From the NCBI GenBank assembly GCA_963713865.1, contig OY970208.1, positions 544,001 through 608,000 of the forward strand: 64,000 bases of DNA, written 5' to 3'. The position numbers are program-made. This stretch comes from an uncultured candidate division Zixibacteria bacterium (GTDB lineage: Bacteria; Zixibacteria; MSB-5A5; RBG-16-43-9). This document shows, in pieces, positions 42,001 through 54,000 of the stretch (its first letter is position 1; each line of letters opens with the position of its first letter).

Positions 42001-45000
42001 AAAATGCTGGACACAAATCTATCCACTGGGATGGTAAAGACGAGAAAGGAATAGAAGTTGCCAGCGGGATATATTTCTATCTCCTTAAAGGAGGGGAATA
42101 TAAGCAAAGCAAAAAAATGATTCTGTTAAGATAGATCCCCCTCCAAAAGGACAAAACCAGAGCCATAATCCCCAGAGCAAATGTGGAAATGATCGAGGAC
42201 TAACCGGATTTCTGGATTATAAAGTCTTCAAGGTTTGAGATTTCAACTTTATCAAACTGCAAACCCACGTTGAGGGCAACGTGGGTATACTTTTTGGGGA
42301 GTGTTAACCTTCAGGTTTACCATAAATAAAACTAAAGTTTTACACTCCAGTATAGAAATCGGTAATCCCGCCTTGCCCCCAAGGTGGGATATTTGACCTG
42401 CCGCCAGTGGAGTTCCAAGCTACGCTAAATAAGTTTTCCAGAAATATCTAAAAAATTCCTTGACTAAAAAAATTAATCCGATAAATTAGAAGGCGAGATG
42501 GAGAACCCTTAAGAGTCTGGAGGTTCTTTCTGACAAAAAGGATTGCTCAAAACAGAAGATCTACTTTGAAGATTTGGGCAATTGATATTTAATTTTAGCC
42601 GCTAATCCATTTTAGAAGATTAGTGGTTTTTGTTTTTAATATCTTAAGGATACTCGGTGAGAATAGTTAGAGCAATGAGCAAGAGAAATAAGAGGATAAA
42701 CTGGAATTTAGTTTCACTCCTTTTTATTTTTAGCCTATCTATTTTAAGTCCCGCTTTTGCCCAAGAAGATACCCTTCCCCCCTCTTCACCCACAGATGTT
42801 ATGGCTAAAGATACTCCGAATGATGCGGGAGGGAGTATCACCATAACCTGGAATAAATCTATGGATGATGGTGCTGGAAAAAATAACGTGACCGGATATT
42901 TGATTTATCGTTCTGAAGAGCGGGAGGGAGAATATAAAGAGATTGGACAGGTCGCCAAAGGAAGCAAAGAGTTCACTGACGGCAACACCAAAGATAAAAT
43001 TAACTATTATTACAAGATAAAGGTTATAAATAAATCTGGTCTTTTTTCTTTTTCTGAACCCAGTCTAAGCGCTTTATCTAAAGCTCAATGGTTTTCTTCA
43101 GGGAGAAAAAATACTTTGATTGCTGCACTGATCCTGGGAGGGTTAATACTCTACTTTATAAGTCAGGCCAGAGCAGGAAAAGAGCTGTTCATTAGAAAAA
43201 TTGCCGGCTTGGACGCGGTAGACGATGCGGTTGGTAGGGCCACGGAGATGGGTAAGAAGATCCTGTATATTCCCGGCACCCAGGATATGGATAATGTCCA
43301 GACCATCGCTGGAGTTACTATCCTAAGCCGGGTTGCCAAAATAACTGCAGAATATGAAACACCACTGGAGGTGCCGGTTTCCCGTTCCTTGGTAATGATC
43401 ACCTGTCGGGAAGTGGTCAAAGAAGCATATGCTTCTGCAGGCCGTCCGGATGCCTTTAAAGAGGATATGGTCCATTACCTGACCGATGATCAATTCGGCT
43501 ATGCGGCTGGAATCGATGGCCTGATCTTGAGAGAGAAACCAGCTACCATCTTTTATCAAGGTGCTTTTTATGCAGAATCTTTAATTATGGCTGAAACCGG
43601 AAACTCCATTGGAGCGATTCAAATTGCCGGAACCGCTATGCCAGCTCAAATCCCCTTCTTTTTTGCCTCCTGTGATTACACTTTAATCGGCGAAGAGCTT
43701 TTCGCGGCATCAGCTTATCTTTCCAAAGAGCCAAAACTTCTGGGTAGCCTGAAAGGGCAGGATATTGGCAAAGCCATTATTTTGCTGATGCTGACTGCAG
43801 GGATTCTTTTCATAACCACTGGATTGTGGAGAGGGTTTGATAGTTTGTTTATAGTTCAATAGGAGAAAAGATGCGAAGAGAAATACCCCTGATTTTGACT
43901 GCAACCGTGGGAATAGTTTATATAATCTCATTTTTCATACCCCATAGACCATTTGGCTCGGTGGAAACACTTTTCTCCGACTGGATTTTAATCATAGCCG
44001 CATTTGCCATCTGGTTAGGGGCATTAAATCTCCTGAGAGTATCGGCTGATAAAATTTACAGGAAAAAAAAGGACTGGTTTTATGCTCTGGTCACCATTTT
44101 AAGCTTTTTTTTGATTGCCATAATTGGGTTTTTCTTTTCCCGGGGCTCTCATTTTCAAGATGTCGGAACCTCTTTCGACTATCTTTATAGAAACGTATAT
44201 AACCCCCTTTCCGCCACTATGTTTGCCATCCTGGCATTTTTTGTCGCCTCAGCTTCTTACCGGGCATTTAGAGCCAGAAGCTGGGAGGCAACCCTGCTTT
44301 TGCTCGCCGCATTTTTTGTAATGTTAGGAAGGGTGCCTATCGGTGATATGATTTCCGGGTTTCTACCGGAAAATATTCGGCTCTCCGCGGTTGCTACTTT
44401 CATTATGAACATTCCTCAGTCTGCTGGACAGAGAGCTATTATGATAGGAATTGGTTTAGGTATTATCTCCACGGCTTTACGTTTAATCCTGGGGATTGAG
44501 AGAACTTATTTAGGTGGGGATTAGAAAGAGGAGTAAAAGGATGAATTTTTTTGATAAATTAATGAAGATAGACCGGAGGATAATCTTCCTCTTCGTCGCA
44601 GCTGCTGTGATTTTACCCTTTTTCTTATCTATTCACCAGAAAATTTTAATCTCCCCGGAGGTGCAGGGTTTGTATGATGCTTTTGAAAGTCTGCCCCCCG
44701 GCTCCAAAGTTATGATCTCCTATGACTATGATCCAGCTTCAGCCCCGGAGCTTCAACCTATGGCAGTGACAGCCATGAAATATTGCTTTGCCAAAGGGCT
44801 TAAAGTGATAATCCTGGGCCTTTGGCCCCAGGGCTCTATCCAGGCCAATATGGCTATTGAAAGCGCACTGGAAGATACGATTGTTAAAGAAAAAAATCCT
44901 CAATATGGGAAAGACTGGGTTAATTTAGGATACATGTCAGGAAATGAGCTGGTAATTCAAAGAATGGGAACAGATATACCGGTTACCTTCCCTCGAGATT

Positions 45001-51000: not shown

Positions 51001-54000
51001 CGCCATCTCAACCGGAATCAAAGTTCTTATCGGACTGGAGAAAACCTATATGGGCGGAGAATAATTGTATCTATGAAAAAATTCTTTGAAAAACTTGAGA
51101 AATTAGACCGAAGGATAATCTTTATCTTCGTGGCTATTGCCCTGATCTTACCCCTTTTTATCCCCTTGAATATCAAGTTCTCTGTTACCCAGCCGGTGCA
51201 AAGCTTTTACGATACTATAGAATCTTTACCTCCTGGCTCAAAAATCCTTTTGAGCGCCGATTATGACCCCGGCTCTATGCCGGAGCTCTGGCCAATGCAT
51301 CTGGCAGCAGTGAGACAACTCTGCAAAAGAGGTATAAAAATAATCTCCATCCAGCTCTGGGCAACTGGCTCCCCCTTAGTTGAAAGAGCTTTTAATGAAA
51401 TAGCCGTAGGTGAGTTTCATAAAAAGTATGGTGAGGATTTTGTGAATTTAGGTTTTAAAGAGGGAAGAGAGGTGGTAATGGTCTCCATGGGGAATTCAAT
51501 CCCCCAGACTTTCCCCACAGATTATCACGGTAATAAAACCGAAGATTTACCCATAATGCAAGGTGTAAAAAATTTCAGTGACTTAGGTATGATCGTTAAT
51601 ATCTCCGGGGGTCTTCCTGGAACCAAGGAATGGATTTTGCAGGTGGTTTCCCGTTTTCATATAAAGCTTGCCTCCGGCTGTACCGCAGTCAGTGCCCCGG
51701 AATTCTACCCCTATTTACAATCCGGGCAGTTAGTCGGACTTTTAGGCGGGATGAAAGGTGCGGCAGAATATGAACAACTAGTAGGGGTTACAGGATTGGG
51801 CAAAAGGGGTATGGACTCACAGTCTGTAGCTCATTTAGTGATCTTTTTATTCATCCTGATCGGGAACATTGCTTATTTTTCAACCAGAGGAATGAAAAAG
51901 GAGAAAAGCTAATAAATATGCCTTCATCTGAATTCATAGGAACCTGGCTTGCCGCAGGACTAACCATATTTTGTTTCAGTTTCTTATATAAGGATAACCC
52001 TTTTTATAAGTTTGCGGAACATCTCTATGTGGGAATCTCTGCTGGCTATTGGACCTCTATGGAATATCACAACGTATTCTTACCTAACCTTTGGGATCCC
52101 CTGATGAGACTGGACTTGAATCTTCTCTTCTCTTTTCCTGAGCTTGGATTTGCAATGATGTGGCAATCTATGATCCTTATAGTCCCATTCATTTTTGGAA
52201 TCTTACTTTTTACCCGCCTTACTAAGAATTTTGGCTGGCTTTCCCGCTGGTCAATGGCTTTAATCATCGGCATATTTGCCGGAATCGCTATTATAGGATA
52301 CAGCACCGGTGATTTAATAACCCAGATCTATGCCAACCTGCTTCCATTATGGACCGGCAACTGGCTTTCCTCTTTGAATAATATCATTTTAATCATAGGG
52401 GTTATTACTTCTCTAATCTACTTTTTCTTCTCCAAGGAGCACAAGGGGACTTTAGGTGGTGCCGCCAAGATCGGGGTTCTGGTTTCTGATGATCTCCTTT
52501 GGCGCCTCCTTCGGGTATACGGTTATGTCCCGTATGTCCCTTTTAATCGGCAGGATCTATTTTATTTTTGGAGAGTGGCTGAGATTGATAAAATAAAAAG
52601 TGGTAGGAGTACGTTGTCCCTCCTTTGGCGGGATGCCCCTTGTATATTATATTTATGGTTATATTTTATGAGAGCATAAGGGAAACAACCCTTCAAATTA
52701 GAATAGGAGGGAACCTTGCCGACAGATCGTTTGCCCCTACAATATTTCCCAAAACACCTCTCTTAATTTATTACCACTCAGAAATAAAAAAGCCCCCTTC
52801 CGGGGGCTTTTTCATAATTATAAATTTATTTCTTCTTTAAAAGAGTCGAGCTTAAAGAAACTTTTTTAGTTACAGTTAATCCTCCTCTGGGATCACTATC
52901 CGTTACACTGATTGTGGCACTTTTTATGGTAGTATCTGTTGGTGCAGTAAAGAATAAGTTAGAGGTTTCTCCATAGCCATTGGTGATTTTAGGCGAGCCA
53001 GAGATCGAACCGGAGGTAACAGTGGCAGAGATAGAATGACCTCCTAAGGGGTTACCTGCCCGATCCTTGATTATAACTGTAAAGGGCTCAGTAGCCCCAT
53101 AAGCCACTGTTCCTGTAATATCTACCAAACAGCTCTTATAATAAGCATAGCCGGTTAAGAAATTCACTTGAACCGTAGCAGAAGCAAAGCCTGATTTTGC
53201 AGTCAGGTTGGAGACTGCACCAATACCATCGTCAGGAGAAACCGGTGAATAATCCCTGGTTAGAACCTGGCTGACAAGCTTGGTTTCAAAACTTGAAGTA
53301 TTTACACCATCTGACGTAGCACCAGAACCACAAGAACCGAAATCTGTTTCCATATTGACTGCAGTCCCGTCCACTACGAAATTCCCATTAAGATCCAGAA
53401 CACTAACTTCAACATCTCCTTTGGATACTCCATCTGCTAACAGAGACTCGGGATAAGTTATGAAGGTAATAGAATACGGTGGACCGGAAACGATCAACAC
53501 TCCAGTATCAGCCACTGTCCCGCCTGAGGTAGAAGCCCAAATATAAGCCAGTCCGTCATTTCTCGGTTCACCTGAATGATAAGCTGATGTTGCCAATCCT
53601 CCCGAAGTTAAAGTATAGGCATCCACCATCCCCTCTTCTGTTCCGAAATAGACTGCGGTGCTGTCCTGAACCGGATTACCATAAACGTCATCTACCATAG
53701 CTAAGACATCTGCAGTAGCATTCACCACGTCCCACCCTCGAATATTTAAAGGTTTAATCCCTAAGGTGAGATAAGCTGGAGGACCCGCATGAATTGCTAC
53801 ACGGGTAACCCTGGAACGGATCGAATCCACCTCTGCCCTTAACTCTACAGTGCCGGAGATGGTTCCGCTGTTCAAGGTTACAAACGCACATCCTGAATCA
53901 TTTGTTTCCTTGGTAACCGGCCCATAATCCTGATCCTCAAGATTTTCACCTCCGTGCGGACCATTTAAAATCCGGACAACAATCTCATTCCCCGACCCGA

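Follow-up and report, generated by a model that had tools for sequence, protein, structure and literature searches.

Binding-protein-dependent importers combine two membrane subunits with a cytoplasmic ATPase and an alpha/beta domain tethered in the periplasm, and transporters typically multiply into paralogues; in ABC and ECF transporters, ATPases are shared in principle between different membrane parts. Here we describe genes from an uncultured candidate division Zixibacteria bacterium whose composition parallels that of such an importer. The window, a stretch of 64,000 nucleotides in which the module genes and the linked genes upstream of them lie on the forward strand, holds at 42657-52679 three tandem A-B-C-D modules of 12 same-strand open reading frames with gaps of -44 to +110 nt. 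These modules are part of a larger and widely conserved set of genes, always accompanied by an actin-fold ATPase and unlike described transporters or membrane machines: Pfam, NCBIfam, PDB profiles and a fold search gave no sequence or clear fold likeness of any subunit to a known transporter, channel or pump.

The membrane modules, their copies and their spread

The A proteins, A1 (42657..43862), A2 (46086..47267) and A3 (49449..50339), match Pfam DUF6754 at E values of 3.2e-122, 4.1e-113 and 1.2e-117, in line with the preliminary description of this DNA. Their predicted layout is a signal peptide, an FN3 domain in some members, a transmembrane helix, a cytoplasmic DUF6754 domain and a second transmembrane helix, a topology based on the signal peptide (Sec-type on A1 and A3) and on charge distribution, with K/R-rich stretches following the first transmembrane helix. 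The AF2 model of A1 (pLDDT 87) places an FN3 domain at residues 40-145, helices at 148-172 and 359-388 and an alpha/beta domain at 183-356; the FN3 domain is predicted to be periplasmic and DUF6754 to be Rossmann-like with six strand-helix units. By sequence fn3 stayed below threshold in the Pfam scan of the A proteins, A2 having an FN3-like region; in A1 the domain is borne out by its fold (2nzi_B, Z 13.7, rmsd 2.1, 97 aligned) and fills the fold-search match lists, while a PDB profile search with the A family returned FN3 chains only, just as had been noted before. FN3 is absent from A3, which consists of signal peptide, transmembrane helix and DUF6754, and the A proteins of copies 3, 4 and 5 lack an ectodomain. 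A3 is matched by 2221 representative clusters at E<=0.001, and among 40 long A homologues 13 carry PQQ_2/BamB-like beta-propellers, 3 carry FN3 repeats and 24 carry unassigned ectodomain regions of up to ~1000 aa.

B1 (43871..44524; 217 aa, ~6 hydrophobic segments) and D1 (45396..46052; 218 aa, ~5-6 hydrophobic segments) are polytopic membrane proteins with the conserved motifs ATMFxLLAFFxASAxxRAFRAR and GIERxYLGG in B1 and SFLYKDNPFYKFAEH and YFFFSxEHKG in D1. B2 (47273..47923) is 37-42% identical to the other B copies, and B3 (50450..51064) is a further paralogue. The earlier statement that three of the four proteins have no Pfam family held for the nine B, C and D proteins of the window (best E 0.0069, and 0.057 in NCBIfam). 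It extends to their relatives: no family was assigned to B members in Pfam, where TMD0_ABC appeared in 5 of 81, and the sole match of 57 D members was DUF347, at E 0.0079 in one of them. PDB profile searches gave nothing below E 0.8 for B and no matches at E<=10 for D.

The C proteins, C1 (44514..45383), C2 (47895..48782) and the paralogue C3 (51073..51912), have a predicted K/R-rich cytoplasmic N-terminus, a transmembrane helix, a periplasmic alpha/beta domain, a second transmembrane helix and a Lys-rich cytoplasmic tail. In the AF2 model of C1 (pLDDT 94.4) helices at 21-37 and 254-288 flank a (beta-alpha)6 domain at 48-249, which has generic Rossmann-like matches only (best 1kjn_B, Z 9.7, rmsd 3.6, 140 aligned), lobes of periplasmic sugar-binding proteins at Z 7.6-8.5 among them. 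The best Pfam match of 85 C members had an E value of 5.4e-4 and concerned two of them. In an alignment of 85 sequences the periplasmic domain has 15 columns that are invariant in all paralogues and phyla, a pattern closer to that of a catalytic site or an interface than to that of a pocket that sets binding specificity. Of 2793 candidates, 1491 are homologues of C3 at E<=0.001, and every named one is called 'hypothetical'.

A tblastn search of the 2.72-Mb single-contig genome found five copies each of A, B, C and D with 36-56% mutual identity, three of them in the window, as had been reported. The two remaining sets lie at contig positions 274520-280157 and ~1266186-1269679, the former with a DNA methylase gene, two open reading frames without assignment and a STAS gene separating B from C, again in agreement with the earlier account. 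Conservation of the five-copy set across the phylum, previously judged from the 280-aa member, is upheld with DUF6754, which matches in all 81 genomes of the phylum (identified as Zixibacteria from source names): five matches in 56 genomes, four in 16, six in 5, three in 3 and two in 1, counts that are not strict copy numbers. The ~3.5-kb spacing also recurs; within the 150 of 385 matches listed, G042, G058 and G069 show it as triples.

That these are five distinct, long-kept complexes, as the preliminary description proposed, stands in part. At least some paralogue classes are older than the GTDB families of the phylum: a quick maximum-likelihood tree of 108 C proteins separates three clades, the copy-1 type (SH-aLRT 99, 9 rows), the copy-2 type (100, 5 rows) and the copy-4 type (100, 13 rows from six families). 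The branch of the copy-5 C protein, however, is long and its placement unsure, and a further clade of 'second-in-array' copies is separate from copy 2 of the window.

The range 'across the phylum' proved too narrow. A scan for related stretches matched at least 598, of which 79 loci were kept, with A-B-C-D loci labelled Eisenbacteria, WOR-3, Stahlbacteria, TA06, Latescibacterota, Neomarinimicrobiota/Fidelibacterota, Sumerlaeia and others. As far as contigs reach, the one-strand A-B-C-D order is kept in 79 of 79, two of which list D before C only through over-extension of D by the ORF caller. Outside the phylum there are usually one or two module copies, and 17 of the 79 loci hold two or three. 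Genes for uptake are frequent neighbours elsewhere, namely TonB-dependent receptors (12 loci), SBP_bac_5 (10) and OppC (12). The system is kept in genomes of ~0.9-1.1 Mb (G108, G116, G124, G152, G160 and G168).

An upstream soluble pair and its link to the modules

Four genes upstream of the array, at 33836-39389, lie outside 42657..52679, the span of the preliminary description. The largest (36251..38119) encodes a GlmL-type ATPase of 622 aa with the ASKHA fold of actin, Hsp70 and sugar kinases (Pfam MutL PF13941, E 1.4e-129; also Hydantoinase_A, E 2e-4). It has a C-terminal extension of ~140 aa, reaches 230.5 bits with the NCBIfam GlmL equivalog model, short of the cut-off of 475, and is present in single copy in the genome; nucleotide-binding motifs, which we take to be those of ASKHA proteins, are visible in its sequence. 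The known context of GlmL is that of B12-dependent mutases. The genome encodes no glutamate mutase E subunit, so the only characterised partner of GlmL is missing from it, and no proven biochemical activity was found for the GlmL family.

U375 (38262..39389) is a soluble protein of 375 aa in three parts: at the N-terminus a barrel-sandwich hybrid domain resembling RnfC_N/NqrA_N, in the centre a Gly-rich alpha/beta part and at the C-terminus a part resembling KOW; RnfC_N is matched in 13 of 20 members, Biotin_lipoyl in 16, KOW in 6 and NQRA_N in 4. Mean column identity in the U375 alignment is 61%, and in the best-matching loci, several of them labelled as other phyla, GlmL is 67-79% and U375 56-70% identical, so that both are far better conserved than the membrane subunits. 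Two small proteins complete the cluster. The first, u154 (33836..34300; 154 aa, two hydrophobic helices), has no Pfam family at E<=0.001, and 22 of 79 loci encode a homologue upstream of, and on the same strand as, the first A gene. The second, u137 (34302..34715; 137 aa), has a single hydrophobic stretch, hairpin-like, and ends in a highly charged tail; 27 of 79 loci have a homologue, mostly upstream of GlmL, with that of L073, L076 and L078 between U375 and A and that of L083 overlapping a called A start that is probably over-extended.

Of the 50 loci with at least 1.3 kb upstream, 33 have U375 directly upstream of an A gene (in two more, the A reading frame was over-extended across U375), and GlmL lies within 2.2 kb upstream of A in 27 of the 42 with enough upstream DNA. 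U375 is not adjacent in WOR-3 and Stahlbacteria-type loci (L049, L050, L052, L054, L062 and L066); in G084, the one genome checked, it lies elsewhere in the genome. In the phylum of G081 (91 genomes) DUF6754 was found in 61, and U375 and GlmL, the latter above the Pfam cut-off, in the same 62; all three occur together in 61 and none in 29, and G173 lacks DUF6754 only, beside a contig end. In the phylum of G082 (61 genomes) DUF6754 and U375 occur together in 47 and are both absent from the other 14. Across both phyla (152 genomes) this amounts to 108 with DUF6754 and U375, 43 with neither and 1 discordant, although genomes within a phylum are kin and the 43 may represent few independent losses. 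In several genomes of the first phylum, for example G101, the soluble pair and the membrane genes are on different contigs or far apart; thus the co-occurrence does not rest on adjacency alone.

PF13941 was present in 119 of the 120 U375 homologues listed from a search of proteins of 658-2000 aa. These are GlmL-U375 fusions, mostly of ~1000 aa, with U375 behind GlmL, an architecture re-checked on seven full-length proteins. More distant fusions of GlmL with a barrel-sandwich part carry N-terminal HTH_3 or Zn-ribbon domains, which hints at regulatory uses of this type of protein. The four-gene module was correctly described as to its order but is no stand-alone unit, since GlmL, U375 and the two small proteins are linked to it by adjacency, co-occurrence and GlmL-U375 fusion.

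A model for the system and its alternatives

From gene content, order, copy number, phyletic spread, co-occurrence, fusion, predicted domain folds and the lack of likeness to known families we tentatively favour an ATP-energised transport or translocation system of the inner membrane, with its membrane core multiplied five-fold; physical assembly of the parts, ATP use and the direction and substrate of transport are inferred. The three tandem sets would be paralogous cores of a larger conserved system, each with polytopic B and D of about six helices apiece, a bitopic C with its Rossmann-like domain in the periplasm and a bitopic A with another such domain, DUF6754, in the cytoplasm and often a variable FN3 or beta-propeller ectodomain in the periplasm. 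GlmL, encoded with U375 once per genome at 36251-39389 and fused to it into one polypeptide in many other organisms, is proposed as the soluble motor or partner of these modules; u154 and u137 are members of the same cluster. GlmL-U375 would dock from the cytoplasm, the most plausible sites being DUF6754 and the conserved DRR N-terminus of C, and nucleotide-driven changes would be relayed to the helices of B and D, while substrate outside would be handled by the tethered C domain and the A ectodomain. One soluble motor would thus serve five diverged cores in this phylum, parallel to the shared ATPases of ABC and ECF transporters. Several points speak against this model: no subunit is clearly like a known transporter, the B12-mutase context of GlmL would suit maturation or chaperoning no less than a motor, the distant fusions hint at regulation, the invariant columns of C look less like a specificity pocket, and U375 is not adjacent in the WOR-3 and Stahlbacteria-type loci.

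The most plausible alternative, if an unlikely one, is that the modules are ion-coupled (secondary) transporters or facilitators and GlmL-U375 a cytoplasmic enzyme or kinase trapping or processing the import, or a docking sensor or regulator, as ASKHA-fold sugar kinases and ROK regulators are with sugar transporters. ASKHA proteins include kinases, GlmL is nearest to the hydantoinase-A branch, HTH_3 occurs on the distant fusions, and copy 4 is flanked by genes for a PGI/PMI-type SIS isomerase and an NTP-transferase, with the NTP-transferase-MetK neighbourhood recurring in 9-10 of 12 further genomes from the phylum; the co-occurrence data would fit equally well. Yet one soluble pair against five diverged cores is awkward for a substrate-specific enzyme, the high conservation of GlmL and U375 better suits a common mechanical part, and no metabolic gene is consistently adjacent across phyla among the related loci. 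Nor do these loci have a conserved envelope-synthesis neighbour, which weighs against a machine for cell-envelope biogenesis or maintenance that exports or anchors a glycan, lipid or lipoprotein, or forms a trans-envelope scaffold, and is no nutrient transporter. We regard this reading as rather doubtful, although the periplasmic A ectodomains are variable, the phyla that hold the system also encode type IX secretion signals (with a PorV-like gene and an M4 peptidase nearby), copy 4 adjoins sugar-nucleotide genes, copy 5 is near a D-Ala-D-Ala carboxypeptidase, and the system is universal in the phylum and kept in 1-Mb genomes; five paralogues per genome are unusual for such a machine, A3, A4 and A5 are without ectodomain, and about one third of the sampled genomes in two related phyla lack the system.

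The U375 family brings to mind an ion-translocating bioenergetic complex on the Rnf/Nqr plan, with best E values of 1.5e-5 for NQRA_N and 4.9e-8 for RnfC_N and a match of this type at 7.9e-10 on a fusion protein. The subunits are also comparable in size and topology: U375 would correspond to the peripheral NqrA/RnfC-N, B and D to the two six-helix subunits of roughly 200 aa, C to NqrC/RnfG with its anchored periplasmic domain and A to NqrF with its anchored cytoplasmic Rossmann-type domain, and retention in streamlined genomes would suit such a complex. We nevertheless consider it improbable, as neither B nor D matches PF02508, the Rnf-Nqr family, and their alignments show no conserved Cys clusters, what we take to be the flavinylation motif was not seen by eye in the C alignment, and a counterpart of NqrB/RnfD is lacking; moreover, Rnf/Nqr genes occur in 85 of 91 genomes whether the system is present or not, so there is no complementary distribution. 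A new kind of Enzyme II-like PTS permease is more improbable still. HPr and Enzyme I, encoded with the PGI/PMI-type isomerase directly upstream of A4, would feed it, in a genome with two EIIA_2 genes and no PTS_EIIC match, and one Cys of DUF6754 (C339 in A1) is nearly invariant. The HPr-Enzyme I-PGI neighbourhood, however, was found in just 1 of 12 further genomes from the phylum, PTS families match no subunit in Pfam, and the partner across phyla is GlmL-U375 instead of PTS proteins; sets of Enzyme I, HPr and EIIA(Ntr)-type proteins without permeases are common regulatory systems.

Gene boundaries and an inserted peptidase gene

C1, C2 and D2 are called from TTG/GTG starts that probably lie too far upstream. 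The true start of C1 is perhaps the ATG at 44541, C2, called from a TTG, has an alternative ATG at 47925 after the B2 stop, and the start of D2 (48739..49452), a TTG reading frame with a 44-nt overlap with C2, is uncertain. D3 (51918..52679) is frameshifted in the assembly: one surplus base at 52477, absent from relatives' contigs (three runs, two studies), puts the last ~42 conserved residues (to ~52596) in the +1 frame, and the D3 orthologues in L006 and L007 are intact.

Whereas U375 abuts A in other genomes, an M4 peptidase gene (39618-42134) with a T9SS C-terminal sorting domain lies between them in the window, and a PorV-like gene is found nearby. Direct repeats bracket this insertion (39334-39388 and 42148-42202, 93%; 39472-39553 and 42386-42467, 84%), the left copy (39334..39553) covering the 3' end of U375 and the intergenic stretch, and the right copy (42148..42467), a duplicate of this segment, lying just upstream of A1.

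The membrane modules and their predicted anatomy

The 12 ORFs at 42657-52679 follow one another almost without gaps on the plus strand and make up three successive sets of four genes, A to D, whose products measure 401, 393 and 296 amino acids (A), 217, 216 and 204 (B), 289, 295 and 279 (C) and, with lengths as called, 218, 237 and 253 (D) in sets 1, 2 and 3. All three A proteins score above the 27-bit gathering score of DUF6754 (Pfam PF20539), at 407 bits (E 3.2e-122) for A1, 377.2 bits (E 4.1e-113) for A2 and 392.1 bits (E 1.2e-117) for A3. This is the sole Pfam family recognised in them, accompanied in A1 and A2 by fn3 scores (15.4 and 12.6 bits) that stay under the 25-bit cut-off. 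The nine B, C and D proteins of the window gave nothing better than E 0.0069 in Pfam and E 0.057 in NCBIfam, and widening the Pfam comparison to homologues yielded a single best match of E 0.0079 for 57 D proteins and a best E of 5.4e-4, in two members, for 85 C proteins. For 81 B homologues the only match was TMD0_ABC, in five of the 81 (best E 2e-6); it was also the sole ABC-related match, as no ABC_tran or permease family was found in A to D. Profile searches against PDB sequences matched FN3 chains for the A family (titin FN3 at E 6e-28) and otherwise reached E 0.81 for B, 1.6 for C and no match for D, in agreement with the preliminary description, by which the PDB informs only on the FN3 part of the module. 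In the ESM Atlas, B matched unnamed clusters only and the DUF6754 part had no usable named match, while profile-profile comparison brought out no relation of A to C or of B to D.

The last D gene (D3, 51918-52679) carries one extra base at 52477 that moves the last approximately 42 conserved residues into the +1 frame. The base is absent from relatives' contigs that are 90-99% alike and come from three metagenome runs in two studies, and the D3 orthologues in two related loci (L006 and L007) are intact, which makes the extra base either an error of the assembly or a lesion of this strain, and not a feature of the family. The only sizeable gap within the array, the 110 nt between A3 and B3, holds a terminator-like hairpin (50346-50368), which may carry no meaning, as the whole promoter and terminator scan was at chance level (44 vs 42.8 and 16 vs 20.0).

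The DUF6754 domain should face the cytoplasm and FN3 the periplasm, because A1 and A3 begin with a Sec-type signal peptide and have a Lys/Arg-rich stretch after the next hydrophobic helix. An AF2 model of A1 (pLDDT 87) places an FN3 sandwich at residues 40-145 and, after a helix (148-172), an alpha/beta domain made up of six strand-helix units (183-356) that is followed by a long helix (359-388). In a fold search, residues 40-143 of the model align with 2nzi_B (Z 13.7, rmsd 2.1, 97 residues), a match that confirms the FN3 domain at the level of the predicted fold; A3 lacks this domain. Fold searches with A are uninformative on DUF6754, because FN3 fills the match lists. In the C protein the strongly basic N-terminus, which includes an invariant D-R-R, is followed by a helix, a soluble domain, a second helix and a Lys-rich tail, a layout of charges and helices that should place the soluble domain in the periplasm. 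Its AF2 model (pLDDT 94.4) shows six strand-helix units at 48-249; the best listed fold match was 1kjn_B (Z 9.7, rmsd 3.6, 140 residues aligned), followed at Z 7.5-8.6 by sirtuins, RCK domains, transhydrogenase dIII and RecJ DHH domains. These matches are generically Rossmann-like, so we assign C to no family. By a crude hydropathy scan B and D have about five or six hydrophobic segments each, and their loops hold highly conserved motifs. A complex prediction of A1 (residues 140-401) with B1, C1 and D1, made with alignments, gave a median of 0.69; two controls with replaced partners gave 0.00 and the control in which C was replaced gave 0.72, and these scores speak neither for nor against a complex.

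Soluble partners encoded upstream

The preliminary description had taken the four genes as the whole unit. Our data show a larger, conserved multi-gene system, which encodes a putative four-subunit membrane core, a soluble ASKHA ATPase, its barrel-sandwich partner and two small proteins; the four additional genes are linked to the core by adjacency, by co-occurrence and by fusion of the ATPase to its partner. The conserved upstream genes were found by clustering the flanking ORFs of related loci, and their positions were checked by tblastn. In the window they lie outside the coordinates of the preliminary description and are u154 (33836-34300), u137 (34302-34715), a 622-aa protein of the GlmL/MutL family (36251-38119; PF13941, E 1.4e-129) and the 375-aa U375 (38262-39389). 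U375 lies directly 5' of A in 33 of the 50 related loci that have at least 1.3 kb upstream, and in two further loci the A ORF has been over-extended across it; GlmL is at most 2.2 kb away in 27 of 42 loci, u137 is present in 27 loci and u154 in 22. Three loci (L073, L076 and L078) have u137 between U375 and A. One cluster of 'reverse-strand 385-aa ORFs' was discarded, since tblastn showed that these ORFs run antisense across U375 and GlmL in genomes of high GC content.

The co-occurrence of the soluble and membrane parts extends to genomes in which they are not neighbours. Among the 91 genomes of one phylum (that of genome G081, labelled Neomarinimicrobiota), DUF6754 is present in 61 and U375 in 62, and these 62 are also the genomes in which GlmL exceeds its cut-off; all three occur together in 61 genomes and none of them in 29. 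In one genome, G173, a short contig encodes the soluble pair and DUF6754 is missing, and in several others of this phylum, such as G101, the pair lies far from the membrane genes or on another contig. In a second phylum (that of G082, labelled Latescibacterota; 61 genomes) DUF6754 and U375 occur in the same 47 genomes and neither occurs in 14. Taken together, the two phyla give 108 genomes with both, 43 with neither and one discordant; as genomes within a phylum are related, these 152 are not independent observations. In the window's own genome GlmL and U375 are single-copy, set against five membrane modules.

Longer homologues of U375 provide the fusion evidence. Among the matches listed, 119 of 120 carry PF13941 and are thus GlmL-U375 fusions, mostly of about 1000 aa and named 'glutamate mutase L' at source; the architecture was re-checked on seven full-length fusions. 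The one remaining match, a candidate U375-A fusion (P0433), was set aside: the record is incomplete and its U375 part continues directly into the signal peptide that belongs to A, so that it is probably a read-through or gene-calling artefact.

The 622-aa protein matches PF13941 over profile positions 1-450 with 433.2 bits (cut-off 27). Against the NCBIfam GlmL models it reached E 3.4e-68 and 1.6e-66 and stayed under all three cut-offs; against the equivalog NF040745 it scored 230.5 bits, below the required 475. It has some 140 additional C-terminal residues, and a comparison with PDB sequences gave nothing at E<=1. Nucleotide-binding motifs, which we take to be those of the ASKHA fold, are visible in it. 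No match to Met_asp_mut_E/GlmE was found in this 94%-complete genome.

U375 is well conserved, with a mean column identity of 61% over 20 sequences, several of them from loci labelled as other phyla. Of the barrel-sandwich hybrid families, Biotin_lipoyl matches 16 of these 20 members, RnfC_N 13 (best E 4.9e-8) and NQRA_N four (best E 1.5e-5), and KOW matches six; the window's own U375 reaches no better than E 0.71 with RnfC_N, and one fusion protein (P0446) scores 39.3 bits against NQRA_N (cut-off 25). The only PDB profile match was a weak one to a NusG KOW domain (E 0.0068). Together the 20 members match 23 families at E<=1, and these include neither the SLBB and C-terminal domains of NqrA nor the Complex1_51K, SLBB and 4Fe-4S domains of RnfC. 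The barrel-sandwich hairpin has no invariant Lys, which makes lipoylation or biotinylation of U375 unlikely. More distant fusions of GlmL with a barrel-sandwich domain (P0449, P0471 and P0499; about 950-1060 aa) carry an N-terminal HTH_3 or Zn_ribbon_2, which suggests a possible DNA-binding branch of these proteins; labels of related fusions, among the matches listed, include Cloacimonetes, WOR-3, Delongbacteria and Aegiribacteria.

The source names of the membrane-protein homologues and of U375 are 'hypothetical', or 'NusG' after the KOW motif. Six of the eight proteins of the system are assigned to no family, and only DUF6754, FN3, GlmL and the barrel-sandwich domain can be named by homology.

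Paralogues and distribution

The single-contig genome of 2.72 Mb has DUF6754 at five places, and tblastn and blastp returned exactly five copies of every gene, A to D, with 36-56% identity from copy to copy, a result that bears out the earlier count of five paralogous sets, three of them in tandem. Copy 4 is on the minus strand (contig 274520-280157) and copy 5 is at about 1266186-1269679 of the contig. The former had been described as broken by a methylase/STAS block, and we place this block between B4 and C4 (L085:9067-11621; contig 276067-278621), where an N6/N4 DNA methylase, a 364-aa ORF, a 92-aa ORF and a STAS-domain protein are encoded on the same strand as the module.

Conservation across the phylum, which is Zixibacteria by the source names of close homologues, also held, including the triple spacing: DUF6754 was present in all 81 sampled genomes, from 55 genera, and the tandem 3.5-kb spacing recurs, with triples in three genomes (G042, G058 and G069) among the 150 of 385 matches listed. 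The number of DUF6754 matches per genome, which is not a strict copy number, was five in 56 genomes, four in 16, six in five, three in three and two in one. A quick maximum-likelihood tree of 108 C proteins, with SH-aLRT support and a midpoint root for drawing only, recovered clades of the copy-1 type (support 99, nine rows), the copy-2 type (support 100, five rows) and the copy-4 type (support 100, 13 rows from six GTDB families). Copy 3 and its orthologues are neighbours of an Eisenbacteria clade, copy 5 is a long branch of unsure placement, and a further clade, made up of second-in-array copies of other members of the phylum, does not join the window's copy 2. From this pattern, several paralogue classes predate the families of the phylum; the idea of five distinct, long-kept complexes is backed only in part, and the tree does not establish exactly five ancient classes. 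Variant arrays were also seen: one locus (L075:5171-9907) has A-B-C-D followed by three more tandem C genes, which form their own clade in the C tree, and in two genomes (G047, L089:8854-10648; G045, L095:9542-11318) a copy-4-type module opens A-A-B-C-D.

Relatives of C were found in at least 598 stretches in a scan of one genome per prokaryote species, and 79 loci were kept. Their labels include Eisenbacteria, WOR-3, Stahlbacteria, TA06, Latescibacterota, Neomarinimicrobiota/Fidelibacterota, Sumerlaeia and Effluviviaceae; several are labelled vaguely or as Acidobacteriota, Bacteroidota or Dormiibacterota, and such labels may be wrong. The one-strand order A-B-C-D holds in 79 of 79 loci as far as the contig reaches, and 17 of them have two or three modules. 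Searched exhaustively with HMMER, A3 matched 2221 cluster representatives at E<=0.001. In all of 40 long A homologues DUF6754 is C-terminal, preceded by PQQ_2 beta-propellers in 13, FN3 in three and unassigned sequence in 24. DUF6754 was absent from all 14 well-known control genomes, and the system is retained in genomes of about 0.9-1.1 Mb. An LplA-like gene lies 3' of D in 17 loci and GcvP2 upstream in six, which we treat as synteny without evident connection to the module.

Possible function and relation to known systems

A full-text search, which did not cover most subscription journals, found no paper on DUF6754 (PF20539), on PF13941 or the GlmL family, or on the accessory protein of glutamate mutase. 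We know of no described system that combines DUF6754, FN3, GlmL and a barrel-sandwich domain, and we therefore rate this system outside the known kinds. Our preferred reading, held tentatively and at somewhat less than an even chance, is that it is an ATP-energised transport or translocation system. This is the simplest reading of its composition, in which two polytopic subunits are combined with an alpha/beta domain tethered in the periplasm and, on the cytoplasmic side, a presumed docking domain and an ATPase. It is also favoured by the multiplication of the core against a single soluble pair and by the uptake genes that often lie nearby in other phyla (receptors of the TonB-dependent type in 12 loci, SBP_bac_5 and OppC in 10-12). 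A bolder form of this reading, which we regard as doubtful, is a new class of primary active transporter or translocase that would be powered by an actin-fold (ASKHA, GlmL-type) ATPase and would be neither ABC, P-type nor rotary; an NqrA/RnfC-like adaptor would couple one soluble motor to interchangeable four-subunit cores. Were this so, the long-unexplained GlmL family would be mechanical ATPases.

In composition the system resembles binding-protein-dependent ABC importers and ECF transporters, with its two polytopic membrane subunits, its alpha/beta domain outside the cytoplasm and its ATPase inside. As in ECF transporters with a shared energising module, and in ABC importers in which several permeases share an ATPase, one soluble unit is apparently common to several membrane units encoded elsewhere in the genome. 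The module nevertheless has no ABC ATPase, ABC permease or solute-binding-protein family, its candidate ATPase has the ASKHA fold, its periplasmic domain is helix-tethered at both ends, and there is one further subunit, whose Rossmann-like domain is cytoplasmic. Set beside type I periplasmic binding proteins, with their two alpha/beta lobes and a hinge, the C model has one lobe, to which single lobes of periplasmic sugar-binding proteins align at Z 7.6-8.5, the same range as unrelated Rossmann-like proteins. That the modules are instead secondary transporters, with GlmL-U375 serving as an enzyme or regulator, is in our view unlikely. The 622-aa protein shares PF13941 with GlmL/MutL of coenzyme-B12-dependent glutamate mutase and with a GlmL-related ornithine-degradation protein; unlike these, it is partnered or fused with U375 and its gene stands beside membrane genes, not mutase genes. 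A machine for envelope biogenesis, or a scaffold, appears less likely still. GldG-type auxiliary proteins (of the ABC-2 gliding transporters) and FtsX/MacB-type permeases, to which C bears a resemblance that serves as a lead, share with it a large periplasmic domain between an N- and a C-terminal membrane helix; C, however, has no Pfam match to ABC_transp_aux or FtsX and has a single generic Rossmann-like sandwich.

An ion pump of the Rnf/Nqr kind is improbable. It would fit the N-terminal barrel-sandwich hybrid domain of NqrA and RnfC, which U375 may share, and the subunit plans agree: one subunit is peripheral, two have six helices and about 200 aa each, one has an anchored domain in the periplasm and one an anchored domain in the cytoplasm. 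Against it, no cofactor motifs and no equivalent of NqrB/RnfD were seen, an ASKHA ATPase stands where those complexes have an NADH or ferredoxin module, and B and D fall outside the Rnf-Nqr family, as PF02508 matched none of the six window proteins (E<=1) and none of the 81 B and 57 D homologues (E<=0.01). True Rnf/Nqr genes, detected with the PF02508 model in 85 of 91 genomes, moreover co-exist with the system, with no complementary distribution. A PTS-type permease is the most improbable of the alternatives. It is suggested by HPr, Enzyme I and a bifunctional PGI/PMI-type SIS isomerase, acting on sugar phosphates, directly 5' of copy 4 here (L085:13171-16356) and in one other genome (L094:5424-8611), but HPr and Enzyme I adjoin copy 4 in just one of 12 other genomes. 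With no PTS family found in A to D and this adjacency not conserved, we rejected the proteins as PTS Enzyme II members. The window's genome has two EIIA_2 genes and no PTS_EIIC match, and its PTS looks incomplete and is probably regulatory.

If the ATPase drives the membrane core, as our preferred transport reading has it, this would be a previously unrecognised way to energise transport. The link to a GlmL-type ATPase gives a handle on two problems, the role of the membrane module and that of GlmL-like proteins outside B12 mutase operons. The scale is considerable, with about 20 genes in a 2.7-Mb genome and presence in every sampled genome of one phylum and in about 70% of the genomes sampled from two others. 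This distribution and the retention in genomes of about 1 Mb make it likely that the system belongs to the core physiology of several abundant uncultured lineages of sediment, soil and sea.

Two stretches of the window depart from the conserved upstream order. Between u137 and GlmL, positions 34723-36021 hold an ORF of 287 aa, weakly matching HNH_5, and the gene for a putative lipoprotein of 137 aa; as u137 and GlmL are adjacent in most other genomes, this looks like another local insertion. U375 is parted from A1 by a gene for an M4 (thermolysin-type) peptidase with a T9SS C-terminal sorting domain (39618-42134). Direct repeats that comprise the 3' end of U375 and the intergenic stretch flank this gene (39334-39553 and 42148-42467), with 93% identity between 39334-39388 and 42148-42202 and 84% between 39472-39553 and 42386-42467, which marks the gene as inserted at a point where U375 and A ancestrally adjoined. 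A TTGACT promoter-like hexamer is found at the end of each repeat. With the sorting domain (the last approximately 100 residues) tblastn gave about 40 matches spread over the genome of 2.7 Mb, which points to a putative large repertoire of type IX-secreted proteins, and a PorV/PorQ-like gene lies at 28085-29488 of the window.
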